Assembly: GCA_964415895.1 (NCBI GenBank)
Contig: CAYQCC010000004.1
Location: 243-64,242 of the forward strand
Length of the DNA: 64,000 nt
Reading direction: 5' to 3'
Source of the DNA: an uncultured Candidatus Saccharibacteria bacterium
GTDB lineage: Bacteria > Patescibacteriota > Minisyncoccia > Phycocordibacterales > UBA1006
Numbering within the stretch: the stretch's first letter is position 1; each line of letters begins with the position of its first letter. A program made the position numbers and the translations under genes. The notes beneath the pieces were generated by a model. That model saw nothing but the letters and a program-made list of their open reading frames with translations. It searched no databases and was not told the DNA's origin. Positions 6,649 through 52,839 of the stretch are shown here, piece by piece.

Positions 6649-6778
6649 GAGTACTACTTTACTTGCATAAAGCACCATTGTGTGCGATACTACGCGTATG
6701 TATTTCTTGTGCCCGGCCGTGTAAACGTCAGTGCTGATTAATACGGTCGAGTTTTTTATATGGATATCTCTCCAAACT

Positions 6779-7123: not shown

Positions 7124-7136
7124 GGCTGAAAACAAT

Positions 7137-7160
7137 TAACTGCTGAAAGGCAGTTTTTTG
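7137..7160 (+). terminator. Putative intrinsic terminator
   Basis: aactgctgaaaggcagtttttt: short GC stem plus T-run after the RRM gene. Confidence 0.4.
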
Positions 7161-7229
7161 TTATCTCCATTTTTGTATATGAAAACAGCTACCGAGATTG
7201 GTAACTGTTTATAAATCTTTTTTAAAACA

Positions 7230-29070: not shown

Positions 29071-29095
29071 TTTTATGGGGGACTATCGGGAATCG
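29071..29095. repeat. Direct repeat of the tRNA-His 3' end (att-like scar)
   Basis: ttttatgggggactatcgggaatcg is identical to 29252-29276, which is the 3' 19 nt of tRNA-His plus 6 nt of flank. Confidence 0.6.
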
Positions 29096-29257
29096 GTCAC
29101 GATCGCATAGTCGCTATTGCTCCTTGCGTCTCGACCCCGACTCGCTGACAAAATTCTCGTACCTCGAATTTCGTAAACCAGCTCCGTCTTTCGATTCCTC
29201 TATTCCATCTCAAAAAATATACTGCAAAAATATTGCATATTTTTTCGTTATTTTTAT

Positions 29258-29331
29258 GGGGGACTATCGGGAATCGAACCCGAATTGCGGGATCCACAAA
29301 CCCGAGTGTTAACCGTTACACCATAGTCCCC
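29258..29331 (-). tRNA. tRNA-His (GTG)
   Basis: Cloverleaf with extra 5' G(-1), D-arm GTGTAACGGTTAACAC, anticodon loop TTGTGGA, T-arm TCGGGTTCGATTCCCGA. Confidence 0.85.
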
Positions 29332-29745
29332 ATATCGTAAACAAAAGCCCCGAAATAATTGAAAATCGAGACTTCAGTTCATGTGTTGATACACAACTTG
29401 TCGATATATCGGATTTTTCTTGGAAACAATCTCCTAAAAATAAATGCAATTGGCATACATTTTTAGAGGATCATTGGGAGGAAATCCTTAACGACATTAA
29501 AAGAATTGCTTCTTTGGACGAAATCTCAATACAAAAGTTATCATACAATAAGGCAGCATAAATTGCAAATATCCCACTTAATATTATTCAAATATTAGTC
29601 TTTGTTAAAATCATCAACTATGGATTGATAGTTTCTAATAATTTCATCTAAATCTTCTTTGAAATCTTTTAAAGCACTTAAAGGTGAAGTAGGATTATAT
29701 TGATGAGGTAATGGAACGAATGATTTTTCATTTAACGTATTCTTA

Positions 29746-30327
29746 TTAAGACCTTGCAAAGTATGTGCTATTCAAGTGAATAAAAGCATCTTCAAAACTT
29801 CTTGCATGGTAAGCATTTTCTTCTTGTTGGTAGCATAAACATAAAGTTGAATCCCCAATTTTAATTGTTCTTTGTTCTACTGTCAAAATCTTAACATCTT
29901 CCCAAGAAATACCTGGCAAAAAATGTAGTAAAGCTGAGTTACTTGTTGCTGTACCATTATTTACAGGACAAGCCTCAATAACAACATTTCCTTTTTTATC
30001 CTTATTACCTATATCGCCTTTAGAATCTATATCTGTAATTACCAAAGATTTAATTCCTAAAAACTCGATAAATTTTTCAAAAATCTGTGAATAAGCTCCG
30101 ACCTCTATAATTGAAATATTTTGTGAAAGTAGCGGTAAAAATGGGTCTTCTGTTCCTACTGCAACATGGATTTTTTCTTCCTCTATATCAATCTTTTTCA
30201 TCACAGTTGGAATGAGAATTCTTTCAGTATCGCCCTCTATCAAAACAGCTTTATCGGCAAAGAAAATTTCGGCTCTACTAATTGTCAAATATTGTGTTAA
30301 GAACTGATACTGTGTTGTGCCTAACAA
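29746..30327 (-). CDS. Toprim-domain protein resembling the C-terminal nuclease module of OLD/Gabija GajA (N-terminally truncated)
   Basis: VLIEGDTERILIP and VITDIDSKGD (DxD) Toprim motifs. No ATPase upstream. Confidence 0.5.
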   Translation of the reverse strand: MLGTTQYQFLTQYLTISRAEIFFADKAVLIEGDTERILIPTVMKKIDIEEEKIHVAVGTEDPFLPLLSQNISIIEVGAYSQIFEKFIEFLGIKSLVITDIDSKGDIGNKDKKGNVVIEACPVNNGTATSNSALLHFLPGISWEDVKILTVEQRTIKIGDSTLCLCYQQEENAYHARSFEDAFIHLNSTYFARS

Positions 30328-30789
30328 AACATATTATTATGTTCGTTAATATGTTATATGGAACAGATAGATACAACCATCACAAATACACATTTATAGG
30401 TATTTGAAATGTAATAATACTTTTATACATTTAATCTTTACAACAAACGAACAAACTAAATTTAAGAAATACAGTTGCACCAAACTATTGGATGTAGAGT
30501 TCTTTAACATATTTAGTTGTTCAGATTTCCAAACTACTTTTTTGAGAATACATTTTTACTACGTCATGTTTTGGCGTTCATCTAATGCATATTTGTATCA
30601 AATAAATAATGTATGAATCTCTACGCAAAAAAACACATTCGGTTAAAAAACAAAAATGACTTCTTAGTTTTTTAACTATTATAAAATTAACGTGGTCTTA
30701 TAAAGTGTTAAGATATTAGTTTTCACACAATATAATAAAACGCGTATCGTTATTAGAAATAAATTGCATCATAAAATAAAAATACATCC

Positions 30790-31170
30790 ATGAAAAATCA
30801 GAAAGCATATTCCGTCATTGTCAGTTTAATTCCTGCGGTGCAAGCAATACTCGACACCTTTAATGCAGCACAGGTAAGTGATGCACTGCGCATGTACATT
30901 GGTGCGCTACTAATCTTGCTTATCATCGTAATGCAAGGCATACAGATATACCTCAATCCAAGCATCAAAAATAATGCTCTTTGGGTAAGTGTGGTAGCAC
31001 TCATTGGATACATTGCAGGTGGCATAATGGACAACCTTAATGTGATACCTATGAGCGAAGAAGTAGCCAGTGTTATTCGGTTAGTATTTTCTTTGTTCGT
31101 AGTCATTGCCAATGCCATTGTGAGAGAATACAACACTGTGGAAGACAAATTAAAAATAAATATAAAGTAA
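30790..31170 (+). CDS. Hypothetical membrane protein (3 TM)
   Basis: 126 aa, hydrophobic helices. Could be holin-like. Confidence 0.3.
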   Translation: MKNQKAYSVIVSLIPAVQAILDTFNAAQVSDALRMYIGALLILLIIVMQGIQIYLNPSIKNNALWVSVVALIGYIAGGIMDNLNVIPMSEEVASVIRLVFSLFVVIANAIVREYNTVEDKLKINIK

Positions 31171-32248
31171 AAATTCCCTTTAAAGTATTCTGTCATTTTG
31201 TTTGTCTTGCTAAATATATAGGAAGATTGTTTCGGTGCTAAATCTTTTGCTACATTCAAATTTTAAATTATTGAAGACTTGAGTTTTTATAAACATTATA
31301 ATTATGTAAGCGTGAATCTTGAAATTTCTCTTGCGAACTAATAAAAATAATTGTAAATTACAAGTACAACCAAGTGAAAAATAAAAATTATTCTTATGAA
31401 ATATTATAACAACAAAACAGCATTAACATCAATAAGTCCACTAAGAAAAATTTATACTAATACGCCAATTATATATGTACAGAAGATTTGATTTAATAAC
31501 AATATTAGTTAGCTATACTTTGTATAGAAAAGTCGTATGCACTCTGTGTACGGCTTTTTTTTATTCTAAAAATTTAAACCAATATAATTTATGGTGAAAT
31601 AAAAGACAAAAAAAACCAGGGTAAACGATAGAGAGTTTAAAACCTGGCTTTATATGATTAATTTTTGCTGCAACATTAAATTAATCTCAACTATAAAGCT
31701 ACCACACTTAAAGATATAACACAAGTCTTATTTATCGACACTGTTTATTTAGTTTATATCTAAAGTTGCCAATCTCTAATATTTACCTTATAATTTGTCT
31801 AATTGATATTGATAGAACTATCGGTTCAACAAACATTTATCAAAATTAAAACTGCAAAAATGGTAAGATTTTACAATTCTTATAATCCAATACTGACTAA
31901 AAAACAGATAGCATCTTGTGTAAATAAACATTGTGTTATTTGTAAAGGAATTATTAATGAATTTTATTGTTGTAATTGTTTTGAAGGACCGAGCATATTG
32001 CAGCTACAAATTAAAAAAAGCCATCAAGATTACTTCTTTATGGATGGTTCAGTTAAGCCAGTAATTATAAAAATCAGAAACTTAGGTTTTGGAATGATAA
32101 ATTTTAATTAAAATTCAATTAATATGGGGCTAAAGATACAGTTGGTATGATTATTTATGTAAATTTGTAATAATAGAAATTAAGTGTTAGGCTTAGTTGT
32201 TTAATGTTTTAATTAGCCTAATTATTTTTTGCTGAATAAAACCACACT

Positions 32249-33205
32249 ATGAAAATATTTAGAATTAAAGTCGAAAATTACAGACTACTTAAAGACTTTT
32301 CTATTGACTTAGAAGAAGATTTATCGTTAGTTATTGGTAAAAACAATACAGGCAAGACATCACTTCTTACCATTTTAGAAAAGTTTTTAAATCATTCTGA
32401 AAAAACTAAATTTTCCATTGATGATTTTAATATTGAATTTAAAAAGAGTCTTGCAGATCTTGTAGTTGATAATATCCAAATTGTTGAAACTGATTTTGTA
32501 CAAATAGGTATAAAACTTAAAATTTTCATTCAATACAGTGATAAGGATGATTTGTCCAACATTAGTAGGGTTATGATGGATCTTGATCCTGATAATAATG
32601 TTGTTGTGTTAGGATTTGAATACATCTTAGATTATGACAACTATTTAAAGATAAGAAGCGAATACTTAGTGTTTGATGACAAAGAATCAGTAAAGGAGCG
32701 TGAGGACACAACTGGCATGTATAAAAAATTAGACGTATATAGTTTTTTAAAACAAGAACATAATAAGTTTTTTATAACAATCAAAAAGTCCATTGCATAT
32801 GATATTGGCGCAGATGACACCCTTGATAAAATATTTATCAATTTAGATAAAGAAAATGTCGGTATCAAAGATATTATAAATTTCAAATACATAAGTGCAA
32901 GACGTGATGTAACCAACAAGGATTTTGATAAGACTTTATCAAAACAAACGTCAATAATTTATAAAAGAACAGAGGAAAATGAAGAAACAAAGGAAGCTAC
33001 GGAAAAATTTAAAGACCAGTTAACCGAAACAGATAGACAGTTAAGTACTATTTATGTTGATTTATTCGAAGAAGTTATTAAAAAGGTTAGAATTTTTGGT
33101 GGAATAAAGCTTAATGAATCTGAAATTGAGATAATCTCAACATTACAACATAGAGAACTTTTATCGAATGCTGTTTTTAATGGTTGCATAGCACTTAATA
33201 TTTAA
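32249..33205 (+). CDS. AAA_15/OLD-type ATPase N-terminal fragment (truncated before Walker B)
   Basis: KIFRIKVENYRLLKDFSIDL...LVIGKNNTGKTSLL Walker A and Lys-rich helical insert. Ends without a DEPE/Walker B region. Confidence 0.55.
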   Translation: MKIFRIKVENYRLLKDFSIDLEEDLSLVIGKNNTGKTSLLTILEKFLNHSEKTKFSIDDFNIEFKKSLADLVVDNIQIVETDFVQIGIKLKIFIQYSDKDDLSNISRVMMDLDPDNNVVVLGFEYILDYDNYLKIRSEYLVFDDKESVKEREDTTGMYKKLDVYSFLKQEHNKFFITIKKSIAYDIGADDTLDKIFINLDKENVGIKDIINFKYISARRDVTNKDFDKTLSKQTSIIYKRTEENEETKEATEKFKDQLTETDRQLSTIYVDLFEEVIKKVRIFGGIKLNESEIEIISTLQHRELLSNAVFNGCIALNI

Positions 33206-33316
33206 GTCTTGACTATGCCAGTGGCCAATGGTATGAGGTACCACCCAATTTGGCAAATAATTTATTTTAGTATATGATACTCTACAAAGGTTGCCACTGG
33301 CTGAAAATTGGTTGGC

Positions 33317-33355
33317 AATCTTGGCCATACAACGGTGAGACGTTGTATGGCTTTT
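33317..33355 (+). terminator. Intrinsic terminator
   Basis: ccatacaacggtgagacgttgtatgg plus ctttttttg. Confidence 0.55.
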
Positions 33356-34013
33356 TTTGTATATGGAAAATACCTTTAAAAACAAGGGTTTTGAGCTAAC
33401 CGCTATGTGTGCGACTGCATAAGCATTGAGTATGCTAAAGGTTTGTTTTGATGATATTTGAGCCATAACTATCATAATCATGGTCAAAAATACAGGCGTA
33501 AAATGACGCATTTAAAATCTATGAGTCATTAAATGACTCATTTTAAATAGCTACTTAGAAGATAGTGCTAAAAGAAACTGCATAAAAAAAATATGAACCT
33601 ATTGCGGAATTAATAAATAAGGTTTACATTGAATTATAAATTCAAGATTATGTCAAGCTTAATGATTAATTCTCCACCATAATAATATAACCATAACTAG
33701 GTAATATTAAAAACAGTTTGCAAAAACTTGACATTTCAAAACACAACTATCATGACATAAACACAAAAATACAAGCATAGAAAATAGATTCAACTACTGT
33801 TAGGATTTCTATGTCCAAATTTTTGCATGATTTATTTTTTGAAATAGCAAGTTTAGCTACTGAACTTGTTATGGTTAAATTAATACATATAAAAAATGCT
33901 TTCTTACAATATTCTTGTGAGAAAGCATTTTTTATATATTCTTTAGAGTATACACAACCTGCATTTAGTACAATTCCGTTTCAAGGTATTCTTAATGCTA
34001 AAATTCAATACTT

Positions 34014-34634
34014 ATGGTAAGTAGAGAATTTAGCATATTAGATTTTGAGCAACAACCATTAAATGTTGCTATAAAGAATGAATTTCACTCTCTGGTTGAA
34101 ACATGCTTTAAAGATGATAGTCTACTTTTTGCCTATTTAGACTTAAAAGAAATCTACCATACAAGCGGATTATCGGAATTGTATTTGTTCACTGACAATA
34201 AAAATATATTACAAGGATTCGATAAAGAATACGCTGTTATGCTTGAGCAAATAGATAAAGAAAATGAACGACTTTACACATATCAAGGATGGTTTAAAAA
34301 ACTAAAAATTCGGAAAGCTAAAGGAACTCAACATCTTTTAGAAAATAAAGAGCAAATAGAATTTACATGGATTGAAACTCGAAAATCAAGAATACAAAGT
34401 GATTTTGCTACTGATATCCATTTCCAAGATGCTAGTTTAGCAAATTATGCAAATGACTATTTTTCTAATATGCAAGACTTAATTCTTAATAAGTTTCCGT
34501 ACTCATTAACTGTAATTCTTCCTATATACATAATTAGAAATTCACACCTAATTCCTTGTGCTGATTTGAGAATAAATTTAGGTACAAATATAGACATCAC
34601 CGTTTTCATAAAAATCTGCTATTTTAAAAATTAA
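34014..34634 (+). CDS. Hypothetical protein
   Basis: 206 aa ORF in the AT-rich island. No motif recognised. Confidence 0.3.
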   Translation: MVSREFSILDFEQQPLNVAIKNEFHSLVETCFKDDSLLFAYLDLKEIYHTSGLSELYLFTDNKNILQGFDKEYAVMLEQIDKENERLYTYQGWFKKLKIRKAKGTQHLLENKEQIEFTWIETRKSRIQSDFATDIHFQDASLANYANDYFSNMQDLILNKFPYSLTVILPIYIIRNSHLIPCADLRINLGTNIDITVFIKICYFKN

Positions 34635-35207
34635 GTCGTTTACTCTAGCGATATCTCTAACTAGGTCTACAGTAAATTTATTTGTGACAGACAACACATC
34701 TGAACGATACAATATATTCTGATTTTGAGTTTCTTCATCGCCAATCCAATCAATTAATAATTCAAGTCCATAAAATTGCGCAAGTCTGCCATTTAAATCT
34801 GCTAACATGGAGATTGTTTTTTCGCTTTTATCACTTGGTTCTTCAAGATTAACGATAGGTCTAGAGGTAATAATAGTAGCCTGACTTGCAGAAATTATTT
34901 TATATATTGACATAAGAGTGTCGGAAAACTTGACACTCACAACAAAATTTCTGTATAATTCTAAATAATATGCATAATAAACTGCAAATCTTTTTGCTTC
35001 AAATTCGATAGGGTGTAAAAAACCATATGATGGATAATTCGCTAATATTTTATTTTGAAATTGCGTAAAATAATTTGTAGAACTTTCTATTCTTACGTTC
35101 AGTAGTTCTTTATCTCTAATGGTTTTTTCAGAATTTTCTGTTTCTAAGAGTTTAAGTAGTTCTTGATAGATTTGTTCTATCGAATCAGATGTAATGTTAT
35201 CATTCAT
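34578..35207 (-). CDS. Hypothetical protein
   Basis: 209 aa ORF, convergent with and overlapping the previous ORF. Confidence 0.3.
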   Translation of the reverse strand: MNDNITSDSIEQIYQELLKLLETENSEKTIRDKELLNVRIESSTNYFTQFQNKILANYPSYGFLHPIEFEAKRFAVYYAYYLELYRNFVVSVKFSDTLMSIYKIISASQATIITSRPIVNLEEPSDKSEKTISMLADLNGRLAQFYGLELLIDWIGDEETQNQNILYRSDVLSVTNKFTVDLVRDIARVNDLIFKIADFYENGDVYICT

Positions 35208-35289
35208 ATTTTATGGTTTCAAATAAAAAAGGAAATAAAGATATTAAAATAATCTTTATTTCCTATAATTTTTTAAATAGTTTATTAAA

Positions 35290-35511
35290 CTATTTGGCGT
35301 TTAGTAAAGTTAAAGGTGCAACAATGTCTGGATGACTGCACAAGCCTATTGATTTAACTTTTAATGAATCAACCTCTTTATTTTTGAATTTAAGCCAATC
35401 CGGTCGGGTGACCGTATGGTTAAACTCAATGGTTACTGGTGATTCGGAGCCGTTTAGAATCCTTAATCTAGTAGGATTAAAAAAATCTAAAATTTTTTGT
35501 GAAGCTGCCAT
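35290..35511 (-). CDS. Hypothetical small protein
   Basis: 73 aa ORF. Confidence 0.2.
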   Translation of the reverse strand: MAASQKILDFFNPTRLRILNGSESPVTIEFNHTVTRPDWLKFKNKEVDSLKVKSIGLCSHPDIVAPLTLLNAK

Positions 35512-36189
35512 TTTTTAATTGTTTTAGTTTTTATAATTTGGTTCTTTTATAGTTTTAATTTTGGTTCAATGGTAACCTACCCCCCCCTTTTTTTTATTAA
35601 ATTTTTATAATTTTGGACTGCAAAGATACGATAAACAATTTTATTTACATAATGTAATTTTTTTTGCACAAATTGTTTATTACTTGCTCTAAATTGGATT
35701 GTAATATAATTATTAATTTAAAGCAAGTCCTTAAATACGCGATTCCATTTCTCTACATTTTCTTCGAATCTTTTGCACATTTTTCGATGCAATTTTACAC
35801 ATCAATTTAAACACTTTTAAACTTTGATTTAAACACCTGTGGACAAGCATTTGATATTCACCAACCTATAACGCCTAAATATCTAAAAAAGTATTTAAAA
35901 TCTGTTAAATTATAAGAACAATATTAAAATTAGCTAGGATTTAAGGGTTTATGTTACACAATTTAATAAATATTTTGCAAAAATAAGACCTGTTTTTCTC
36001 AAAGTCAAAATTTAAAGATGAATATTTAGTGTCCTTGAGATGTAATTATACTCTCTTATTGCTAAAATAATGTCCTATTCTTTTCTTTTTTTGGCACAAA
36101 TTAAACTAAATAACACTACTCACATATATATGCGCCTTATACAGAACAATACATTTTTTAATAAAAACTTGCCCTCTCGGGCAAGTAAA

Positions 36190-37452
36190 CTATTTCTTAG
36201 TTCTCTTTTTAGTTTTGGTATTTGGTTGTTTTGTTTTCTGCATAGCACTCATTACCAAATCCGTAGCATCATCAATCATTTTATTTGGCAATGTGTCAAG
36301 ATAGATTTGCGTGGTCTTAATAGATTCATGCCCTAACATATCGCTAATATCAGCAATGGGAATTTGGATGTGTTTTGCAATAGTAGCGAATGAATGTCTG
36401 GAAACATACGATGTTAAATTCTCTTGTATTCCACACAAGGTTGCAATCTTTTTTAGCTTCTTGTTGTACCTGCTACGTGCCCACTTAACTTGTCGATACT
36501 GTTCCTCTGGAGTTGCTTTGGTAATAATTGGAAAGATGTAGTCATCTTTTTCTTCTGATGGGTACTTGTCTAGTATCTGTTGCACATTTGCGGTTATTCT
36601 AATTGTGTAAGGTTTATCTGTTTTTTGACGCTCATAAATGATACGACCATCAATAAGGTTCGACCATTGTAAATGTGCCATATCTGCAAAAGGCATACCA
36701 CGAGTATAAAAGCAAAACATAAAATAGTTATGCGAGTTGTAGAGCGGATGATTGGTTTCGAACTTCAATTCCTCAATGGCTTTAATCGCTGTTGTACTGA
36801 TAGCGCGTTTGCGTGTTTTTTTTGTCTTAATCTTGTAGTTGGTAAATGGATACAGATCTCGCTCAACAAGCTTCGCTTTGATAGCGTTATTGAATACGGC
36901 TCGGATGGTGCGCATATACACAGCAAGTCCATTTAAGCTGTTGCCTTTGATGATGTGGTGCTGTTCAAGTTTTACAAGAAATGAGTGAGTAATGTCGGTA
37001 AATGTAAGCTCTCTATTATTAGAAAAGGTACGCAGAACACTAATGACGCCTTCGTAAGAACGAGCACTGCTAAATCTTTGTGTCTTTTTCATATCAGCAA
37101 TCATGTTTTCTGTATATTTGAAAAAGGAAAGATTATTTGACTTTTCTATGAGTTCTTTGAGTTGCGTGATGGTGAGCGTTTGAAGTGTTTTCTTTTCGTC
37201 TAATTTAGAAATGATGTCGAGTGCTTCGGCAACTTTCTTGCGATGCTGGTTGTTAAGCCTAGTTACGGATTCTGTACCATTATAAGAAGATTTTATAAGA
37301 TGTTTGGTGTCGTCCCAGTCTTTTAGATGCAGCGATAAGCCGAGCGGAATTTGTGAAGATTTCCTATTATGGACAATGCGCATAATGAGTGGAAATGTGC
37401 CATCGGCTTTTTTTACTCGTGTATCGAGGACAATAAGTGCGTTTGTTTTCAT
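36190..37452 (-). CDS. Tyrosine-type site-specific integrase (phage/CTn integrase family)
   Basis: C-terminal catalytic motifs RHSFATIAK, LGHESIKTTQIYLD. N-terminal arm-binding and SAM-like domains. 420 aa. Confidence 0.85.
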   Translation of the reverse strand: MKTNALIVLDTRVKKADGTFPLIMRIVHNRKSSQIPLGLSLHLKDWDDTKHLIKSSYNGTESVTRLNNQHRKKVAEALDIISKLDEKKTLQTLTITQLKELIEKSNNLSFFKYTENMIADMKKTQRFSSARSYEGVISVLRTFSNNRELTFTDITHSFLVKLEQHHIIKGNSLNGLAVYMRTIRAVFNNAIKAKLVERDLYPFTNYKIKTKKTRKRAISTTAIKAIEELKFETNHPLYNSHNYFMFCFYTRGMPFADMAHLQWSNLIDGRIIYERQKTDKPYTIRITANVQQILDKYPSEEKDDYIFPIITKATPEEQYRQVKWARSRYNKKLKKIATLCGIQENLTSYVSRHSFATIAKHIQIPIADISDMLGHESIKTTQIYLDTLPNKMIDDATDLVMSAMQKTKQPNTKTKKRTKK

Positions 37453-37463
37453 TTGGTTCTGTT

Positions 37464-37868
37464 TTAAAAATGAGGAAATCTATTCACAAGCAGCTCACAA
37501 GCAAAAGTACATTTCAAACAATATCGAATCATATCAAATAACACCAAAGTTAATACTTGCTGTAAACACCCAATTTTCTTATTCACAATATCATTGGCAT
37601 TTAAACATTTCAATTCATCGATGATGTTTGGAATGCGCATCTGCAGGCGTTTGATAAGTAATTTTTTCTGTTCAGGGAAAAAGGAATCGAAAGGGGTTTT
37701 GTAAATAATGTGATAAAGCAACATCAATTCTATTTGCGGATGCATATCGCTTGTTTCGTTGCGTGAAACTTGAATTACATCTTGTGTGCCAAGTAATTCA
37801 GAAATATCTTGTTGGTTAAAAATGGAATGTTTACGATGATTTCGTAAATGATGATTAATAGGTTTCAT
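37464..37868 (-). CDS. Hypothetical protein (upstream of integrase)
   Basis: 134 aa. No motif recognised. Confidence 0.25.
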   Translation of the reverse strand: MKPINHHLRNHRKHSIFNQQDISELLGTQDVIQVSRNETSDMHPQIELMLLYHIIYKTPFDSFFPEQKKLLIKRLQMRIPNIIDELKCLNANDIVNKKIGCLQQVLTLVLFDMIRYCLKCTFACELLVNRFPHF

Positions 37869-38016
37869 AAAATATTTTCATTAGTTGATAATATTCCTAT
37901 GATATTAAAAATGGATAAATACAATATGAGGGCGAAATTGCATATGGCTGTCTTTAAAGTAATAACCGCACGTTGGTTGCGTGGATATTAAAATCCACGC
38001 TTCACAAAACTTGCGG

Positions 38017-38523
38017 TTATTCAAATTGTATTTTCATCTTATCTATCAACGACTGTTGCAAAACTTGCAAGCGTTCAATGTTTTCATCAGATTTCTTTTG
38101 TATTGTTTTTCTTTTTAAAGTATTTCTTTTGTTATGTTCGCAATCACGAACAAGTCTTATTCGTGATTGCGAACAAGTCATGTCGCAAATGCGAACAAGT
38201 CGAGATTCATAAAAAAGAAGTGGATGTCCTCTTCGTTCATGTGCTTGATGCAGTTCAGTCTCCTTTCCATCTGTTACGACAAGTAAACTCTTGTCTATTA
38301 AACTTTGAATTGTTTTTGAGAGTACTGTCCTATACAATCCTGTCTTTTTGAGAATGAAGCTGTAACTTAGTCTGTCCTTTATTTTCCGCTTTCCTGTTTT
38401 GCTGTCTATCCACCCAACAGTTTGGCGAAGCACAATTAATAGCACACGAAGTTCTGCGTGTGTAAGTATTGGAATATGTTCAAAAAGTTCATTAGGTACT
38501 GGCGTAGTGTTCTCAAGTGACAT
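38017..38523 (-). CDS. Putative replication initiator / DnaD-like winged-helix protein
   Basis: LTHAELRVLLIVLRQTVGWIDSKTGKRKIKDRLSYSFILKKTGLYRTVLSKTIQSLIDKSLL is typical of phage/plasmid Rep wHTH. Contains internal iteron-like DNA repeats. Confidence 0.45.
   Translation of the reverse strand: MSLENTTPVPNELFEHIPILTHAELRVLLIVLRQTVGWIDSKTGKRKIKDRLSYSFILKKTGLYRTVLSKTIQSLIDKSLLVVTDGKETELHQAHERRGHPLLFYESRLVRICDMTCSQSRIRLVRDCEHNKRNTLKRKTIQKKSDENIERLQVLQQSLIDKMKIQFE
38140..38212. repeat. Iteron-like direct repeats plus 11-bp inverted repeat inside the Rep-like gene
   Basis: Three copies of cgaacaagtc and the palindrome gcaatcacgaa...ttcgtgattgc. Confidence 0.55.
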
Positions 38524-38592
38524 GAAAACTACAGTACACGAGGAAATTTGAATACAATATGAATGCTTTTTTGCTGATGCAAAAATTGCCTT

Positions 38593-38820
38593 ATGTTGTG
38601 TAACAAAAAATGGAGATATGGTGCAAACATGGAAGAAATTCTCGCAATGGAAAAAGATGTAAAAAAGCTGATTTTAGAAGAAGAAAAAAATCTTCTAAAT
38701 TCAGGCTTTACACAAGAGGATATAACGATACTTTATGAGGCATTGGAATATATAGCATACCCTGTCATTGCAGAGTATTGTGAGCATGGAACGATTACAG
38801 ACATTGACGAAATCGAGTAA
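38593..38820 (+). CDS. Hypothetical small acidic protein
   Basis: 75 aa. Confidence 0.25.
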   Translation: MLCNKKWRYGANMEEILAMEKDVKKLILEEEKNLLNSGFTQEDITILYEALEYIAYPVIAEYCEHGTITDIDEIE

Positions 38821-38873
38821 ATTTTAGACTATGATATACTTTCTTTATTATCAGCGAATAACTCTATTGATCT

Positions 38874-40424
38874 ATGAATATTACTAAACTAGCACTTATT
38901 TATTGTCGTGTCAGTTCCAAGCAACAATTGGATGGTGGCGGTCTTGGTAGCCAAGAACAAAGATGCCAAGAATATGCAAAATTTAACGGATATGAAGTTG
39001 TGGAAATATTCCACGATTCTTTTTCTGGTGGTGGTGACTTTATGAAACGACCTGCTATGCGTCAATTATTGGCGTATGTTGATGAACACTCACAAAATCA
39101 GTATGTAGTTATTTTTGATGACTTAAAACGCTTTGCACGAGATGTAAAATTTCATTGGGAATTGAGGAGTGAATTTGAATCACGAAACCTTATACCTGAA
39201 TGTTTAAACTTTAAATTTGAAGAAACACCAGAGGGAGCTTTTATTGAAACAATCATAGCTGCACAAGGTGAGCTCGAACGTAAACAACAAAAAAGACAGG
39301 TGTTGCAAAAAATGAAAGCACGAATGCAGAGGGGTTTGTCTTGCTTTCCTACTGCACCATACGGATATACCTATGTTGCAAGTTCCTTGCATGGCGGAAA
39401 GATCTTACAGATTGATAAAGAAGCATCAAAGGTTGTAAGGATGGCATTTTCCGAATTTGCAAATGGTAAATTATTTCATCTAAGAGATGTGACTAAGTTT
39501 CTTACAACAAATAGTGTAAGAAAAAAGAAAGTTGCATTTAAAGACGAAACTGTAAAAAGCATGTTGAGTAATGTTATCTACATTGGTTTCTTAGAATATC
39601 CGACATGGAATGTAGAACTTACTAAAGGTGTTCATGATGCAATTATTCCACTCGAATTATTTGAAAGAGTACAAATAAGATTAAAAGGTAAAATACCGCA
39701 AAGAACTCGTGTTGATATGAGAGAGGACTTTCCACTTCGTGGATATGTAAACTGTATTCATTGCAAACGTCAATTAACAGCATCTTGGAGTACAGGCAGA
39801 ATAGGGTCGAAACATCCTTATTATCGTTGCCATACCAAAGGATGTGTCATGGCAGGAAAAAGCATACAGAAAAAAGAACTGCATGATTTTTTTGAAGAGT
39901 ACATAAAACCACTCTCATTTAAGCCACAAATTAAAACAATAGCAAAACTTAAAATTCTTGAAGAGGCATTGAGAAGAAATAAGATAAAATATTTAGAATT
40001 AGAAAAAAAGAAACAGGAAATTATTTTAATAGATCAACAAATAGAAACTTTAGTTGAAAGGCTTTCTGCGCCACTAGATAGAAGTATTGCTGAGATATAC
40101 GAAAGCCAAATTGCTAATCTGAATAAAAAAAGAATTTTATTAAATGAGATCTCTATAAAAGATGATACTAACCCTAAATTGTTGGAACCTATAGTAGATA
40201 TTGCCTTTAAAAAGAGTGAAAACCCTTATGCTACATGGAAAAAAGACAAATACGAACTACAAAAACAGGTGTTGAATATGCTGTTTTATACCAATTTAGA
40301 ATATGGTAAAAAAGAGAAGTTTGGAAACACGAACGAGGCTTATTTATTAAGGCTTTTTAAGAGAATTGAGATTGAAAACAACCAAAATTTACAGCATGTC
40401 GAGATGCAGGGATTCGAACCCTGA
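38874..40424 (+). CDS. Large serine recombinase
   Basis: Resolvase domain with catalytic Ser in YCRVSSKQQ. Recombinase domain and Zn-ribbon CIHCKRQL...YYRCHTKGC. The 3' end overlaps tRNA-Pro by 26 nt. Confidence 0.85.
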   Translation: MNITKLALIYCRVSSKQQLDGGGLGSQEQRCQEYAKFNGYEVVEIFHDSFSGGGDFMKRPAMRQLLAYVDEHSQNQYVVIFDDLKRFARDVKFHWELRSEFESRNLIPECLNFKFEETPEGAFIETIIAAQGELERKQQKRQVLQKMKARMQRGLSCFPTAPYGYTYVASSLHGGKILQIDKEASKVVRMAFSEFANGKLFHLRDVTKFLTTNSVRKKKVAFKDETVKSMLSNVIYIGFLEYPTWNVELTKGVHDAIIPLELFERVQIRLKGKIPQRTRVDMREDFPLRGYVNCIHCKRQLTASWSTGRIGSKHPYYRCHTKGCVMAGKSIQKKELHDFFEEYIKPLSFKPQIKTIAKLKILEEALRRNKIKYLELEKKKQEIILIDQQIETLVERLSAPLDRSIAEIYESQIANLNKKRILLNEISIKDDTNPKLLEPIVDIAFKKSENPYATWKKDKYELQKQVLNMLFYTNLEYGKKEKFGNTNEAYLLRLFKRIEIENNQNLQHVEMQGFEP

Positions 40425-40471
40425 GTCACCTGCTCCCAAAGCAGGCATGTTAGCCGTTACACCACATCTCG
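40399..40471 (-). tRNA. tRNA-Pro (TGG)
   Basis: Acceptor CGAGATG/CATCTCG, anticodon arm CCTGC-TTTGGGA-GCAGG, T-arm CAGGGTTCGAATCCCTG. Confidence 0.8.
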
Positions 40472-46382: not shown

Positions 46383-46454
46383 GCCCTTGTAGTTCAATGG
46401 ATAGAACAGGAGACTTCTAAGCTCTTAATCGAGGTTCGATTCCTCGCGAGGGCA
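46383..46454 (+). tRNA. tRNA-Arg (TCT)
   Basis: Anticodon loop CTTCTAA, D-arm GTTC-AATGGATA-GAAC, T-arm CGAGGTTCGATTCCTCG. Confidence 0.8.
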
Positions 46455-46560
46455 CATTCAAGGCCGACGCGGAGGCCTCAAAAACCTTAGCAAATCTTTA
46501 TCTTTTCATTATGTATATTTCGTAATTATTTTATGGTAAGGTTCCATAATATATCCGTAT

Positions 46561-48492
46561 ATGCCTGATGAAAACAAAGAGACAACTCAAGAAAAACCAA
46601 AGAATCCCCTCGAAGGGTTTTTTGGCATCAAGGATACGACTAATCTCTATAACTATGTTTTAGTATTGCTTCGGCCAAAAGGAGTGGCCTACGAAATTGA
46701 TCCACTTTGGACAGCATATCAAAACATTATATCTGGCCAAGATGTAGAGATTACAGAAAATTTGATCATGGAATCATTAGAATTGATATTCAACCTAATT
46801 GAGCATGCACAAGGTAATTCCTGCAATCCTTCACCCTTTGTTACATACTGTGACGATATGGGTTTTTGGTTAAAGCCACGTTTGAAAGAAATTGTTGCAT
46901 ATGTGTCCAAAGTCGCACAAAAATATGATTATATAGAATTATCTGATCAGATAAAAAATATACTCACAGATACGGTTATTGACTCGGTCACTAACGGTAA
47001 TGACCAGGACTTATCTCTTGTTAAGGAGTTCATAAAAGAATTCGTTGTTTTGTATTTTCAAGCTCGATTGGAATTTAACAAAGTACCAGGTCGACTTTTA
47101 TATAAATTTCCAAGGTTCGAGGTTTTTGAAATTCTGAAAAATGAAGAGTATGGTCTTTATGGTCTTAATATGCACTTTTCAAATGGATCAAGCGCAAATT
47201 ATGAGCGTGTTGGCGAAAAAAGAACAGGGATGAATATTATGTGTGATCATCCAATAGGTTTTTTTGTTGGGATGAATGATGATTTAAAAAGGGAGTGGCG
47301 TATCGGCGATAAGCATCTTTACGAAATAGGACTTCCTGGAAGATATAATAATTGGGGCGAGTGGAGACCTCTCGTTCATCCGGGCGATTACACACAATTT
47401 GAGACGGAAAGTGTACGCATTGCTGAAGGCGATCTTGAAATAGCGAGCATCTTATTTTTTGTCATGTGTACTGGGCATAGAATAATTGAATTCGTAGCGA
47501 AAACACCAATAGAAATGCCGCATAGTGACTTTTCTCTGGGTGGCCACCTGTATTTGCATAAATGCGACAAGCCTGAGGAAAGTTCCCATCGGGCAAACGA
47601 TTTTGTTTTATATGATGGTCATTTTACTCTTGATGAACTCACCCCACTTGCGATAAGGTCAGCTATTGCTTCTATAAGTGTAGGCTTGAATCGCATGGCA
47701 TTTGCCTATGGATCAAACATTGAATGGGTGCCTAAATATTCAATGGTTCAGCACAACCCCCACGGCAAACCAACTCCTACTGAGGAGGATTTAAAAGTAC
47801 TTGAATCAATGCTGGTTGATTTTCCAAATAATGAAGACGCTATCGTTCTTGATATCTGCATAGACTGGTTTCACCGTGGGGAACTTGCGAGAAAGAAAAA
47901 TGTATTCCTTGCATTCCTTTGTTACTATATTGCACTAGAGAGTGTCGTTATCGCTATCACGGAAGGAGATGCTGATCTTGGATTTAATTATGAAAAAGAA
48001 ACCCGTACGGAAAGAAAAGATCGAGTGAATCAAGGAATCCGCAGTCTACACGAAGAACTATACGAGACCGATCCTGAAAAATTTATCAAGGAAGCCTATT
48101 TCAATCATGTTATTGGACTTAAACAAAGGACGAAACAAATCTGTGAACGAGTATTTGGAGAGGGTCACGAATATATGAAATCTTTGTTTGAAAAAAATGA
48201 GGACGGGTTTTCCCTTTCTGACTTGAGAAGCGAATTAGCACATGGAGGGGCAACCCTTCTAAGCACAGAACATAGAAAAATGATTCGCGAACGATTACCA
48301 GAACTAGCTGAAATTGTCACCAGTTTTGTTAAAAAAATTATTCTTAAACCAGAGCAGGAGTTTCCTAAATGGTCCCGTTCTCATAGTTTTTCTGTGTATC
48401 CAAGCGATCCAAGAGATACTATGATTATGACCGATGAAAGGGTGACGGGCAATGTGGGTGGCTGGAAAATAAAACCAGAGTGGATGGACTAG
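46561..48492 (+). CDS. Large hypothetical protein with C-terminal HEPN-like Rx4H motif (candidate abortive-infection/RNase)
   Basis: 643 aa. C-terminal LSDLRSELAHGG (R-x4-H) in a helical domain. No other recognised domain. Adjacent to a serine recombinase. Confidence 0.35.
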   Translation: MPDENKETTQEKPKNPLEGFFGIKDTTNLYNYVLVLLRPKGVAYEIDPLWTAYQNIISGQDVEITENLIMESLELIFNLIEHAQGNSCNPSPFVTYCDDMGFWLKPRLKEIVAYVSKVAQKYDYIELSDQIKNILTDTVIDSVTNGNDQDLSLVKEFIKEFVVLYFQARLEFNKVPGRLLYKFPRFEVFEILKNEEYGLYGLNMHFSNGSSANYERVGEKRTGMNIMCDHPIGFFVGMNDDLKREWRIGDKHLYEIGLPGRYNNWGEWRPLVHPGDYTQFETESVRIAEGDLEIASILFFVMCTGHRIIEFVAKTPIEMPHSDFSLGGHLYLHKCDKPEESSHRANDFVLYDGHFTLDELTPLAIRSAIASISVGLNRMAFAYGSNIEWVPKYSMVQHNPHGKPTPTEEDLKVLESMLVDFPNNEDAIVLDICIDWFHRGELARKKNVFLAFLCYYIALESVVIAITEGDADLGFNYEKETRTERKDRVNQGIRSLHEELYETDPEKFIKEAYFNHVIGLKQRTKQICERVFGEGHEYMKSLFEKNEDGFSLSDLRSELAHGGATLLSTEHRKMIRERLPELAEIVTSFVKKIILKPEQEFPKWSRSHSFSVYPSDPRDTMIMTDERVTGNVGGWKIKPEWMD

Positions 48493-48494
48493 AC

Positions 48495-49799
48495 CTACTC
48501 CATCATCAATTTCTTATCTTTCAATAAGATCTTACTCTTAATACAACTCAGCACCTCTCGTTTCTCGAGCATCGTGCCGTGCTGTAACATGTACTTTGCG
48601 AAGGTTTTAATGTTTATATCATTACGTTTTTTGGATTGTTGCAAATCCTGTTTCAATACCCCTGTCTGGAATAGTGCGTACCGTGCGACTTCTTTTTCAA
48701 GCTTTTGCTTCAATTCAGTCCTGTCGAGGTTCATCTTTTCAATAATCAACAGCATCTCATCGATGAGCAGTGCTTCTTTTACCGATTCATTTGGACAGTC
48801 CCTGTCTTTCACTTTGGTGCATCGGTAGTACACATGCGCATTGGATCCTCCGTCTTTGAGTACCTTGATCTTTTCCTCGGCAGTAATCCCTGAAGCACAA
48901 TAGGCGCAGTGAAGCATGCTCGTGAATGCAAACTCGCGACCGTACGTTTTCTTTTTTTCAACTTTTATTTTCTCTTGCGCGGCTTCAAATAATTCTCGGG
49001 TAATGATGGGTGTATGCTTGCCCGTATACCATTCCCCACTCTTTTCTGGATATTCAAATACTCCATAAAAGAATGTCATGCGAAGCAACCTGTAAATATT
49101 TCCAAGTGTCAACAATTTTCCGCTCTTGGTTTTGAATCCAGTTTCTTTGAGCCATTTGTATATCTTCCTGCCTGAGTAATTTTCATTGGCGACTTTTTCA
49201 AACATTTCTTTGATAATCGGTGCCCTTTTCGGATCCACGAATACCTGGCATTTCTCGTCCTTGTTCTTGCTATTCAGATATCCAGTCGGTGCCATGGATG
49301 GCCTCAATCCCATCGATGCGCGCGTTCGCAATCCTCGCTTCACATTGATCACCTTGTTGTCGTTCTCGAGCTTTGCCTGCGAACCAAGAATCATGAGAAG
49401 GAATTTTTCATTCGGATTGTTCGTGAACCTCTGCCCACCGAACGTTCGTATCTCAGTCAAAAGTCCCTGATCCATCAGATCCACAATTCTTCCGAGATCG
49501 CCTGCATTACGGCTGATACGGTCGGGTGCCCATGTCAGGATTCCATCGAATTTCTTTTGCTTTATTTCCTCGACAATCTCGTTGAATACTGGCCGTTGCC
49601 CTGCCTCCTTTGCGGAATGAGACTCCTGTTTTATGAGCACGATTTCCAAGTTCTCAGCTTCTGCCATTTTCTGCATTTCCTTGATCTGACTGTCTATGGA
49701 AAGTATCTGCTTGTCCTCCTGTTCCGTACTTTTTCGAGCATACAGGCAGTATTTCACCCTTACAGGTATTGACGGTTTCGCCATTACCCCTGTCGCCAT
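48495..49799 (-). CDS. Large serine recombinase
   Basis: YARKSTEQED catalytic Ser region plus recombinase and Zn-ribbon domains. Start taken at MATGVMAKP (49799). The longer ORF to 49955 reads into the IS. Confidence 0.8.
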   Translation of the reverse strand: MATGVMAKPSIPVRVKYCLYARKSTEQEDKQILSIDSQIKEMQKMAEAENLEIVLIKQESHSAKEAGQRPVFNEIVEEIKQKKFDGILTWAPDRISRNAGDLGRIVDLMDQGLLTEIRTFGGQRFTNNPNEKFLLMILGSQAKLENDNKVINVKRGLRTRASMGLRPSMAPTGYLNSKNKDEKCQVFVDPKRAPIIKEMFEKVANENYSGRKIYKWLKETGFKTKSGKLLTLGNIYRLLRMTFFYGVFEYPEKSGEWYTGKHTPIITRELFEAAQEKIKVEKKKTYGREFAFTSMLHCAYCASGITAEEKIKVLKDGGSNAHVYYRCTKVKDRDCPNESVKEALLIDEMLLIIEKMNLDRTELKQKLEKEVARYALFQTGVLKQDLQQSKKRNDINIKTFAKYMLQHGTMLEKREVLSCIKSKILLKDKKLMME

Positions 49800-49928
49800 T
49801 TGTTGCGTTATATTCATACACACCATCAATGACGCAATCCCTCCGAGGAGTCCAGGACGGGTCTGTTGATAACTAATTCCTCTGAAAGTCCCAGATTTCG
49901 TTTTTCCAATGAAGGAATATAATCCGCA

Positions 49929-51197
49929 ATATGCGGTGTTTTTGTTTGGTCGCAAAATTCTAAAAAATATATGAATAAAATATTATCGTACGATGAATAC
50001 CAGAAGAAAATTAAGAGTCTTACTACTCCTGAAGAAATAGCCGCATTCGCTCAGGAACTTATCACCCCCATGCTGAACAATGTCGCAAAGGATGAGCCGA
50101 ATATTGTCGAGGAAAAAATAGAGAAGAAACTGCCTGCTGATGAAAAGCCAGCAAGCCTACCTACTATCAAGCCTAAGTATAACCGCAGGAATCCTTATCA
50201 GCTGGAAACGATGAGTCCTTGGTATGACGTGGTTGGAAACGACACCGAAGCCATGGTTATCGATCTCTATGCTAAAGGCCTGACTACTCGAGACATCGTA
50301 AACCATCTGAAGCGAAGCCATAACATCGACATTTCCCAGCCCAACGTATCCACGATCACCGACAAGGTATTTCCGCTGGTTAAAGAATGGCAATCCCGCG
50401 CATTGTCATCATGTTATCCGATTCTGTATCTCGACGGCATGCACTTCAAGGTTCGGGATGCTGGGAAGATTTCCTCAAAGGTCGCGTATATCGCTCTTGG
50501 TATCAATCAGTATGGACACAAGGAAATTCTCGGCATCTGGATCAGTGAAACTGAAGGGGCGAAATTCTGGATGCATGTCTTGAACGATCTGAAGAATCGT
50601 GGAGTCGATGACATTCTCATCGCGTGCGTTGACGGATTGAAAGGTTTTCCCGAAGCCATCAAGGCCATGTATCCGCATACCGATGTTCAAGTCTGCGTAG
50701 TTCATCAGATCAGACACACTGTTATGTTCATTGCATCGAAAGATAAGGAAAAGTTTTCCGATGAGTTAAAAACTATCTACACTGCACCATCTGAAGATGC
50801 AGGGTTGGAGGCTCTGAAGAACATGCAGGAACGATGGCCGATTTACCAAGCGTATCTGAAAGGTTGGGAGACGCGCTGGGCAGATCTCGCGCCATTCTTC
50901 AGCTATCCGCAAGCCGTGCGAAAGACCGTTTACACGACAAATGCGATTGAAAATCTCAATCGCCAATTCAGAAAGGTAACCAAGACGACACAACTATTCC
51001 CCCATGACGATGCGCTCTTGAAATTGCTCTGGCTTGCGCAAGCAGACATCACGCAAAATTGGCAAATGGCCATCCGCAATTGGGGCGAGGTCATGGCACA
51101 GCTTAGCATCATGTTTCCTGATCGGGTGCAGTTCTAATAACCAAACTATTAACACTTACTAATTAGCGCGACGCAAACAGATGTTTACACCGCATAT
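49929..51197 (+). mobile_element. IS256-family insertion sequence
   Basis: Transposase gene flanked by imperfect inverted ends atatgcggtgt... (left) and ...acaccgcatat (right). Confidence 0.6.
49971..51137 (+). CDS. IS256-family (Mutator-type) transposase
   Basis: 388 aa. ALGINQYGHKEILGIWI...CVDGLKGFPEAI...VQVCVVHQIRH conserved DDE region. Confidence 0.85.
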   Translation: MNKILSYDEYQKKIKSLTTPEEIAAFAQELITPMLNNVAKDEPNIVEEKIEKKLPADEKPASLPTIKPKYNRRNPYQLETMSPWYDVVGNDTEAMVIDLYAKGLTTRDIVNHLKRSHNIDISQPNVSTITDKVFPLVKEWQSRALSSCYPILYLDGMHFKVRDAGKISSKVAYIALGINQYGHKEILGIWISETEGAKFWMHVLNDLKNRGVDDILIACVDGLKGFPEAIKAMYPHTDVQVCVVHQIRHTVMFIASKDKEKFSDELKTIYTAPSEDAGLEALKNMQERWPIYQAYLKGWETRWADLAPFFSYPQAVRKTVYTTNAIENLNRQFRKVTKTTQLFPHDDALLKLLWLAQADITQNWQMAIRNWGEVMAQLSIMFPDRVQF

Positions 51198-51202
51198 AAA
51201 AA

Positions 51203-51228
51203 ACCAAGATCATATCCTGGTTTTTTAT
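51203..51228 (-). terminator. Intrinsic terminator downstream of tRNA-Arg
   Basis: aaaaaaccaggatatgatcttggtttttt on the minus strand. Confidence 0.55.
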
Positions 51229-51233
51229 CTAAG

Positions 51234-51306
51234 TGCCCTCGGCAGGACTCGAACCCGCATCTTCCTCAGTAGAACAGAGGCACCCTATCCATTGGACCAC
51301 GAGGGC
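51234..51306 (-). tRNA. tRNA-Arg (probable TCT anticodon), second divergent copy
   Basis: Acceptor GCCCTCG/CGAGGGC, T-arm GCGGGTTCGAGTCCTGC, anticodon arm CCTCT-GTTCTAC-TGAGG with a T-T closing mismatch. Only about 70% identical to the tRNA-Arg at 46383 (aligned by eye) and higher GC. Confidence 0.6.
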
Positions 51307-51422
51307 AAAAGACTTCTACTATGAATACTCGCCGTAAATGCGATTATATAGTAGTTATTCTCTTGCTCTCAGTTTTTTCATTGCTAATATGGACAGTATC
51401 ATCGTATGGCGACAAGTGCAAC

Positions 51423-52421: not shown

Positions 52422-52839
52422 TCCAATAATATTACCCCCCCCCCCGACGATTTTACCAGTGCTGAGTAAGGTAAAAACTGTGTACATCTCATGGTTCGAT
52501 GTGTATAAAAAATTAGAAAAAGTACATAAATACACGCTCGGACAAAAGATTGATAATTTGTTTGTTGAGATTATAGAATCGATATCGCTCGCGACGTTTT
52601 TGGACAAAACAGAAAAACAGCCGTGGATCAGATTTGCGATCAGGAAATTGGATACGGTGAAAATACTGCTATTGATATTATGGGAAACACGCTCGATTGA
52701 TGATACGGTCTACATTACCCTGTCAGAACCAATCCACGAGATTGGTAAAATGCTGGGTGGTTGGAACGGGCAGCTGACAAAACTGTCCGAGAATGCAAAA
52801 TAAAACTCATCCAGATTTTGGATGAGAAACGAAATAATA

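Follow-up and report, generated by a model that had tools for sequence, protein, structure and literature searches.

A 64,000-nucleotide stretch of a contig from an uncultured Candidatus Saccharibacteria bacterium (the window) carries an AT-rich island of 10,998 bp (29405-40402) between the genes for tRNA-His and tRNA-Pro. The island is very probably a decayed Chitinophagales-type element that inserted at the 3' end of tRNA-Pro(UGG) by way of an attachment site (attP) within its own large serine recombinase (LSR) gene, which was split by the insertion. The attachment sites show that attP, in LSR codons 508-510, recombined reciprocally with the tRNA-Pro 3' end at the hexamer TGTCGA; the 5' part of the LSR gene stayed at tRNA-Pro and its tail came to lie on the tRNA-His side, the cargo was shredded by deletions and an inversion after, or alongside, integration, and excision would restore the full-length LSR gene. 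An intragenic attP with a split gene is apparently a widespread property, undescribed so far, of a serine-integrase family that targets tRNA and transfer-messenger RNA (tmRNA) genes.

The guanine-plus-cytosine (GC) content of the island is 0.308 (29405-40396), compared with 0.391 and 0.392 in its flanks and a minimum of 0.382 among the 63 other 11-kb windows of the stretch; the cargo half (29405-36189) has 0.283 and the mobility half (36190-40396) 0.347. A 6-bp core at both ends, recombinases of its own and a GC content of 0.31 versus 0.39 are hallmarks of a genomic island, and the AT-rich element bracketed by tRNA-His and tRNA-Pro that an earlier note on this DNA had described is thus recovered by ARAGORN and the GC profile. 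Related loci were fetched through a VKOR-family membrane protein encoded to the right of tRNA-Pro (50-85% identity), the matches belonging to metagenome-assembled genomes with the labels Candidatus Paceibacterota, Paceibacteria or Saccharibacteria. Six of these related Patescibacteria loci have tRNA-Pro and tRNA-His in unchanged order and orientation, with 37-71 bp between them. The comparison with related genomes lacking the insertion, which the earlier note had proposed as a check, therefore yields a compact empty site and establishes a foreign element integrated at tRNA-Pro. Aligned with L003, its closest relative, the window agrees through tRNA-Pro as far as ...CATCTCGACA, where the similarity stops; it returns on the side of tRNA-His, exactly at the native spacer (TCGACA-AGTTGTGTATC...). 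The element had been thought to start at 29340, but the island begins at 29405, behind 68 bp of this spacer. A pattern scan of the window for the junction found exactly two perfect copies, one per island end, and no third, internal att copy; since there are just two core copies, both at the ends, the island is a single element and not a tandem array. Each host junction was also seen once in assemblies of two other sequencing runs (attL in L001 and attR in L002). tRNA-His is not a target of the element; it is the next host gene, adjacent to tRNA-Pro in the six relatives.

The four attachment sites can be compared base by base. The progenitor-like contig L058 has attP as ..ACAGCA / TGTCGA / TATATCGG.. 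(at greater length, ..TTTACAGCA-TGTCGA-TATATCGGATTTTTC..), and L003 has attB as ..ACAACT / TGTCGA / GATGCAGGG.. (..ACACAACT-TGTCGA-GATGCAGGGATTCGAACC..). On the Pro side of the window, attR consists of the left half of attP and the right half of attB, and on the His side attL consists of the left half of attB and the right half of attP, so that the exchange is exactly reciprocal, with zero bases lost or gained. The 6-bp core TGTCGA, at codons 508-510 of the LSR gene, covers the acceptor-stem end, the discriminator base and two trailer bases of tRNA-Pro; because the crossover falls within this hexamer at the tRNA 3' end, the tRNA gene is intact without an element-borne copy.

The integrated LSR gene retains codons 1-509 followed by seven extra codons of antisense tRNA, giving a product of 516 amino acids (aa), and its last 51 codons lie 11 kb away, adjoining tRNA-His. 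The LSR open reading frame (ORF) runs into tRNA-Pro only because it lost its true 3' end on integration; this end is now at the opposite side of the island. The overlap, given as 26 nucleotides in the earlier note and measured here as 27 (40398-40424), had been taken for an element copy reconstituting the tRNA; the 22-27 overlapped nucleotides are instead host tRNA sequence. When the LSR frame is read over the circular junction (40402 to 29405), 51 codons are added up to a stop at 29559-29561, and this orphan 3' end reads ISDFSWKQSPKNKCNWHTFLEDHWEEILNDIKRIASLDEISIQKLSYNKAA before the stop. The nearest homologue, P0121 (93% identity), has 561 residues versus 516 in the window, the next relatives have 532-567, and the C-terminus of P0121 shows clear homology to the added 51-codon peptide. 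Joining the two parts gives a 561-aa sequence identical to protein P0241, which is unsplit and occurs on 13 contigs from several sequencing runs. In two of these (L058 and L059) the DNA of both island ends is contiguous. Window 37549-40405 corresponds to L058 4145-7001 at 99.97% identity and window 29393-29770 to L058 6987-7364, where the sole two mismatches fall within the part of attL that comes from the host. A stretch that is contiguous in L012 and L058 is thus divided between the two island ends, with an overlap of 15 bp at the core.

The split is not confined to this island. The LSR family comprises 620 clusters (50% identity) at E <= 1e-30, and in the C-termini of the 120 nearest homologues a conserved V-[DE] pair represents the core codons. 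From this pair 74 of the 120 go straight into an antisense-tRNA peptide (T-arm and acceptor stem), with endings such as VEMAGIEPACK, VDPTGLEPATPSLQMRCSTR and MVLRERIELSTSPLPRECSTTEL (VEMQGFEP and a stop in the window), and about 33 continue into a native tail, V-D-x4-S-W-N and then an amphipathic helix. Among 133 less redundant representatives of 50%-identity clusters, about half have an antisense-tRNA peptide as their C-terminus. A scan of metagenome contigs with the joined LSR found 30-40% relatives only and no further close-clade insertions; at 15 of the loci of such relatives an opposite-strand tRNA (Thr, Leu or Arg) overlaps the end of the ORF. Three distant relatives (40-45% identity) could be reconstructed with the same split: L079 at tRNA-Ala (core GTGGAC, island of 5.6 kb, orphan tail DMVLKSWNQIESWIF.., joined ORF of 532 aa), L080 at tRNA-Ala (core CTACTGTGGAC, 4.8 kb, orphan tail DIVTKSWNQIESYIF.., 527 aa) and L082 at tmRNA (core GTGGA, 6.1 kb, orphan tail DMVIESWNSLHLWVL.., 531 aa). 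Their orphan tails are on the same strand, in frame and directly behind the second core copy, and the joined lengths of 527-532 aa fit those of unsplit relatives (526-535 aa). The island of L079, the only one of the three checked in this respect, has no tyrosine integrase. A tblastn search with known tails gave no convincing orphan tail in loci with 6-kb flanks; tails were found only with 10-kb flanks. An attP within the integrase ORF, with the gene partitioned by integration, is therefore present in the window and at three further loci. The antisense-tRNA C-termini are a systematic annotation artefact that masks the true gene end, and chimeric C-termini (G[FLIV]EP, RIELSTSPLPRE.. and similar) occur in about half of the database entries P0141-P0240 and P0275-P0415. 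A 526-aa LSR variant (P0248) was examined as a second split event and rejected, as it breaks at a different residue (~443).

Two further observations concern the family. L080 has two orphan tails upstream of one tRNA-Ala (463-540 and 6738-6821), the inner intact and the outer with an in-frame stop, with restriction-modification-like cargo between them; the older, decayed outer tail points to repeated insertions at the same tRNA-Ala. Family members at tmRNA (ssrA) are found in L082 (11501-11914) and in L078 (2376-2751), and as L078 is from Candidatus Nomurabacteria, a member of the candidate phyla radiation (CPR), the family is present more than once in CPR genomes.

The identification of a large serine recombinase at tRNA-Pro is upheld by its Pfam domains: the ORF (38874-40424, +) contains Resolvase (E = 1e-22), Recombinase and Zn_ribbon_recom domains. 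Residues Y10, R12, V13 and S14 are invariant in 72 sequences, and the catalytic Ser14 of the R-x-S motif is intact. All recognised domains are kept in the 516-aa product, and the lost part is the C-terminal tail only. An AlphaFold2 model was built on P0121 with 72 aligned sequences (mean predicted local distance difference test, pLDDT, of 87; long helices at 351-425). Its lone low-confidence internal stretch, residues 508-515, is specified by the att core together with the flank to its right, and residues 516-550 are helical with pLDDT values of up to 93. In the model, the att site is thus placed in a predicted disordered linker between the last zinc-domain helix and the structured C-terminal tail, where a constraint at the DNA level would cost the protein least. 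Foldseek gave a probability of 1.0 to the full-length SPbeta, Bxb1, phiC31 and LI integrases, the nearest sequence match in the PDB covers the catalytic domain only, and the plasmid and phage collections held no LSR relative above 28% identity. The 75-aa protein encoded directly upstream of the LSR throughout the close clade, a candidate accessory factor, is 58% identical to its counterpart in L017, and the same position is also filled in L012, L058 and L066; Pfam- and PHROG-type scans gave no family match for it. A promoter and terminator scan around the LSR gave nothing informative.

Self-splitting integrases are known from archaeal viruses and plasmids, including SSV1, pTN3 and pT26-2 (PMC8371274, PMC7253208), and according to a 2021 review recombinases that break up the gene encoding them are confined to archaea and to the tyrosine class (PMC8371274). 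The window shares with these systems an attP in the integrase ORF, integration into a tRNA gene that partitions the integrase gene to both element ends, and a gene and site combined in one compact module (PMC8371274, PMC7253208). Two differences are evident. The SSV-type enzymes belong to the tyrosine recombinases (Pfam Phage_integr_3) and are described as restricted to archaea, whereas the enzyme of the window is a bacterial LSR; and the SSV-type split parts the catalytic domain from the N-terminal part and leaves an inactive enzyme, whereas the window LSR loses only a C-terminal tail of 52 residues behind its catalytic, recombinase, zinc-ribbon and coiled-coil parts. The window LSR resembles these 'suicidal' integrases in genetic layout and is not a member of their family, as the fold and the domain of life are different. 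No bacterial or serine-type self-splitting integrase was found in the open literature searched, although earlier descriptions may exist.

The domain set, fold, short core and position of the gene at the element edge are those of phiC31, Bxb1, A118/LI, SPbeta SprA, TnpX and CcrAB. In the characterised LSRs, however, attP is outside the gene and the targets are mostly protein-coding, whereas the family described here has attP in its own 3' coding region and uses the final bases of tRNA and tmRNA genes as target, and no characterised phage or plasmid LSR is more than 28% identical to the window enzyme. In the integration-dependent immunity of mycobacteriophages and in lambda sib, attP in or beside a gene alters a product or mRNA upon integration; there it is the repressor or the 3' end of the int mRNA that is affected, and the enzymes are tyrosine integrases. 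Mobilizable elements with serine recombinases have been reviewed as inserting in, and disrupting, dispensable protein genes, and the tables of that review list tRNA 3' ends for tyrosine integrases alone (PMC5704250).

Two recombinases are encoded on the island, and we infer that the LSR, and not the tyrosine integrase, probably catalysed the insertion, because the LSR gene contains the site and relatives without a tyrosine integrase share this architecture, and because the tyrosine integrase gene is ~3 kb away in a block joined by a 4-bp overlap. LSRs need no host factors, so that this route could work in a foreign phylum. The tyrosine integrase (36190-37452), whose presence had been predicted and is substantiated by its intact Pfam domains, is nevertheless the obvious competitor: it could have inserted the element at tRNA-Pro in the manner of NBU1 or Tn6031, with the crossover in the LSR gene being incidental. 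tRNA 3' ends are classic targets of tyrosine integrases, as exemplified by Tn6031 at tRNA-Pro (PMC5704250), a common core of 6-9 bp fits this class, and the island resembles NBU1, Tn6031 and CTnDOT in its Arm-DNA-bind_5/SAM_5 integrase, its tRNA 3'-end target and the coupling protein, ArdC and RadC genes of its progenitor. Unlike in those elements, the insertion is not at an integrase-adjacent site and the transfer genes are gone. The crossover falls inside the LSR gene, on a codon pair (V-[DE]) conserved throughout the LSR family, and the same architecture recurs at tRNA-Ala and tmRNA in islands of 4.8-6.1 kb, of which the one checked (L079) has no tyrosine integrase; the joint between integrase block and backbone (37549-37552) shows no att-like site. 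An insertion by the tyrosine integrase is accordingly considered improbable.

It is also hardly likely that a one-off illegitimate recombination, or the use of a pseudo-site, took place inside an LSR gene with no dedicated attP. The rest of the island is indeed full of microhomology-type joints, the close-clade LSR is mostly unsplit in Bacteroidota elements, and no other split member was found in the close (>49% identity) clade; an exactly reciprocal exchange, with no base gained or lost, nevertheless speaks against a single accident, as do the shared codon breakpoint (three distant relatives, at least 74 database proteins) and the encoding of the att site in the sole disordered linker of the LSR. 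That the island is ancestral and was lost in the relatives, or that the contig is an assembly or binning chimera of Bacteroidota and CPR sequence, is very improbable even though the source is a metagenome assembly and island segments are 100% identical to contigs of other samples, since the compact tRNA pair is present in all six relatives at VKOR identities of 50-85%, for each host junction one independent assembly, from another run, shows it too, and attL and attR are exact reciprocal hybrids of the known attP and attB, a result that a chimera or a deletion would not give.

Several points weigh against an LSR-driven insertion of a Chitinophagales-type element into a CPR host. The acting enzyme is deduced from the DNA products, which are just those that an attP x attB exchange should give, and the dyad symmetry of attP and attB was no better than that of shuffled controls. 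The island also carries a Bacteroidota-type tyrosine integrase, and Tn6031, a Bacteroidota element with a tyrosine integrase, is listed at a tRNA-Pro 3' end (PMC5704250). In L066 and in L017/L019 the close-clade LSR is unsplit, within chromosomal contigs or elements; there another recombinase holds the element, and the LSR route is not the only or the main one. The 100%-identical progenitor contigs carry no host assignment, and the host phylum is taken from the labels given to related metagenome-assembled genomes.

A more tentative proposal, which we rate as possible but not probable, is that the intragenic attP constitutes a state switch: the free element would make the full-length enzyme, with its conserved helical tail needed for or licensing integration, the integrated element would make the tail-less chimeric one, and the module would cross phyla. 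The tail-less enzyme could then be either dead, locking the island until a related element supplies an enzyme in trans, in the manner of the archaeal 'suicidal' integrases, or changed in directionality and competent for excision. If this switch operates, conserved tRNA ends and the independence of host factors would let the module carry elements across phyla, and a tail-less LSR of changed directionality would permit excision without a separate directionality factor.

A self-splitting design in a large bacterial serine-recombinase family means that the design arose twice, and its proposed advantages, a compact gene-plus-site module and self-limiting integration, can now be tested with a far simpler enzyme. 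Tools for genome engineering are obtained by mining integrated elements for serine integrases; with about half of the entries of this family truncated, such an entry would yield an incorrect clone, and the search for its attP would be misplaced. The 3' ends of tRNA and tmRNA genes are natural landing sites in nearly any bacterium.

As regards origin, a Chitinophagales genome (L066, a contig of 1.46 Mb) contains an unsplit LSR of the same 90%-identity cluster in the same gene order: O-like gene, small gene, LSR, 214-aa gene, 149-aa gene, gajB, gajA and trwB. L058 is 92% identical to this contig at the nucleotide level over 9 kb, and the window segments are 86-99% identical. Because L066 and other clade members lie in Bacteroidota-type elements, the element family is taken to be at home in Bacteroidota, where it is usually kept in the chromosome by other recombinases, and the sequence comparisons imply a recent cross-phylum transfer from Bacteroidota (Chitinophagales) to CPR. 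The window records a very recent flow of DNA between these groups and the quick dismantling of Gabija and transfer genes. Bacteroidota elements with a second, different serine recombinase at their border were observed in L017 (1-307) and L019 (6499-8106); the border LSR of L019 adjoins a fragment of a Mg-chelatase (comM-like) gene, a known type of serine-integrase target.

The coordinates of the island features are compiled in Table 1.

Table 1. Features of the island and its borders, in positions of the window.
Feature	Position	Strand	Basis or remark
tRNA-His(gtg)	29258-29330	-	ARAGORN; host gene, left neighbour of the island
Native tRNA-Pro/tRNA-His spacer, host half of attL	29331-29398		68 bp; base-for-base alignment to the spacers of L003 and L004
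attL core TGTCGA	29399-29404	+	Four-way att comparison; pattern scan
Orphan LSR 3' end (rest of codon 510, codons 511-561, stop)	29405-29561	+	In frame with the core
Remnant of 214-aa gene (last ~58 codons)	29595-29770	-	L058 block 6987-7364
gajA fragment C, Toprim (~aa 444-629 of 701)	29768-30323	-	100% identical to L058 10451-11006
Block unmatched in L058 and L072, with 126-aa hydrophobic ORF (30790-31170, +)	30324-31180		
Inverted block from downstream of the TrwB-like gene	31181-32132	-	100% identical to L058 14653-13702
gajA fragment N, ATPase (118 bp upstream and aa 1-305)	32131-33163	+	100% identical to L058 12457-11425
L072-type block with tyrosine integrase and truncated genes (33811-35511)	33161-37552	-	Three collinear blocks
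Tyrosine integrase	36190-37452	-	Pfam Arm-DNA-bind_5, Phage_int_SAM_5, Phage_integrase
134-aa ORF	37464-37868	-	5' part is a conserved 115-aa backbone gene; 3' end replaced at joint 37549-37552
Lambda-O-like winged-helix protein	38017-38523	-	Candidate replication initiator
75-aa protein	38593-38820	+	Directly upstream of LSR; candidate accessory factor
LSR 5' part (codons 1-509 and 2 nucleotides)	38874-40402	+	Pfam; 99.97% identical to L058
attR core TGTCGA, overlapping the last tRNA-Pro bases	40397-40402	+	att comparison; pattern scan
Host-encoded end of truncated LSR ORF (..EMQGFEP, stop)	40403-40424	+	Antisense to tRNA-Pro
tRNA-Pro(tgg)	40398-40471	-	ARAGORN; integration target, still intact

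The earlier note had regarded the OLD-type fragments of the island as one GajA nuclease broken by rearrangement, and this view holds. The ATPase ORF (32249-33205, +) corresponds to positions 1-297 of the PADLOC GajA model PDLC00079 (349 bits) and the Toprim ORF (29746-30327, -) to positions 440-627 of the same model and to Pfam OLD-like_TOPRIM; since the two blocks match different parts of one 701-aa gajA of L058 with 100% identity, they are fragments of one gene. L058 carries complete GajA (701 aa, 932 bits) and GajB, a UvrD-like helicase (641 aa, 791 bits), as detected by PADLOC. Behind its LSR are the 214-aa and 149-aa genes, gajB, gajA, a TrwB-like coupling protein and a NACHT-type gene, and upstream of the LSR module are ArdC, RadC and a cytosine methylase. 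Of GajA, only two pieces are left in the window, with fragment N inverted relative to fragment C and its ORF continuing into unrelated sequence. A six-frame profile search found the GajA middle (~305-444) absent from the window, residues ~630-701 are also missing, PADLOC detected no GajB among the eight island ORFs scanned, and the L058 block map contains no gajB counterpart. With its halves on opposite strands, its middle and C-terminal end gone and gajB absent, the Gabija system of the window is not functional. The gene for the coupling protein is itself deleted from the window copy and a Pfam scan of the island found no relaxase; the island is a remnant without transfer genes and not a complete conjugative or mobilizable element.

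Relative to L058, the island has undergone three deletions and one inversion, and its L072-type block (99.9-100% identical to L072) two more, internal deletions, of 337 bp and 1.7 kb; L072-type contigs belong to the same sample series as L058-type contigs. At joint 29768-29770, ~3.1 kb has been lost in comparison with L058, comprising the rest of the 214-aa gene, the 149-aa gene, gajB and the end of gajA. The blocks match L058 or L072 at 99.5-100% identity, and since the retained blocks carry no point differences the data are consistent with a rearrangement shortly after arrival. Overlap was scored at the six joints that are mappable on both sides (29768-29770, 32131-32132, 33161-33163, 34589-34594, 34658-34660 and 37549-37552), the two joints flanking 30324-31180 being left out; the block overlaps of 2-6 bp found there are consistent with microhomology-mediated deletion and inversion. 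In L002, from another run, the C-terminal end of GajA is kept as a diverged allele (L002 1-210, to the left of the equivalent of window 29777): a 757-bp alignment with L058 is 93% identical, with the divergence in the first ~210 bp. With this end retained in L002, the decay was stepwise, and the diverged allele indicates recombination among element variants.

Among the other island genes, the Rep-like winged helix-turn-helix protein of the earlier note is supported by a match of the lambda-O-like protein to the PHROG 'replication initiation O-like' (E = 3e-9) and, weakly, to Pfam Phage_rep_O (E = 1e-4, short of the curated threshold). The ORFs at 34014-35511 are, as had been stated, of no annotatable function, but they are truncated copies of a 232-aa and a 416-aa gene that are intact in L072-type contigs. 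The unknown ORFs, including the intact L072 and L058 versions, gave no function by Pfam, PADLOC or PHROG, the sole exception being a 374-aa gene that matches a PHROG of unknown function; the 126-aa hydrophobic ORF had no family matches. Inside the O-like gene are three 20-bp iteron-like repeats with a spacing of 22-23 bp (38137-38201), visible in the protein as the repeated peptide LVRICD/LVRDCE. The origin of phage lambda lies within gene O, in a position like that of these repeats.

Outside the island, a small relic (29071-29283, -) consists of a 181-bp insert directly behind the 3' end of tRNA-His, bordered by a ~30-bp repeat of this end (29071-29102 versus 29252-29283, 91% identity); L003 is without the insert. 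It resembles the final remains of a separate integration that had a long direct repeat and was probably of the tyrosine-integrase type. A further mobile-looking region, of higher GC content (0.43-0.46), extends over 46383-52607 and holds two non-identical tRNA-Arg(tct) genes on opposite strands (78% identity), a large serine recombinase unrelated to that of the island (48495-49955; 25% identity), an IS256/Mutator-family transposase (49971-51137) and a reverse transcriptase (51423-52607).

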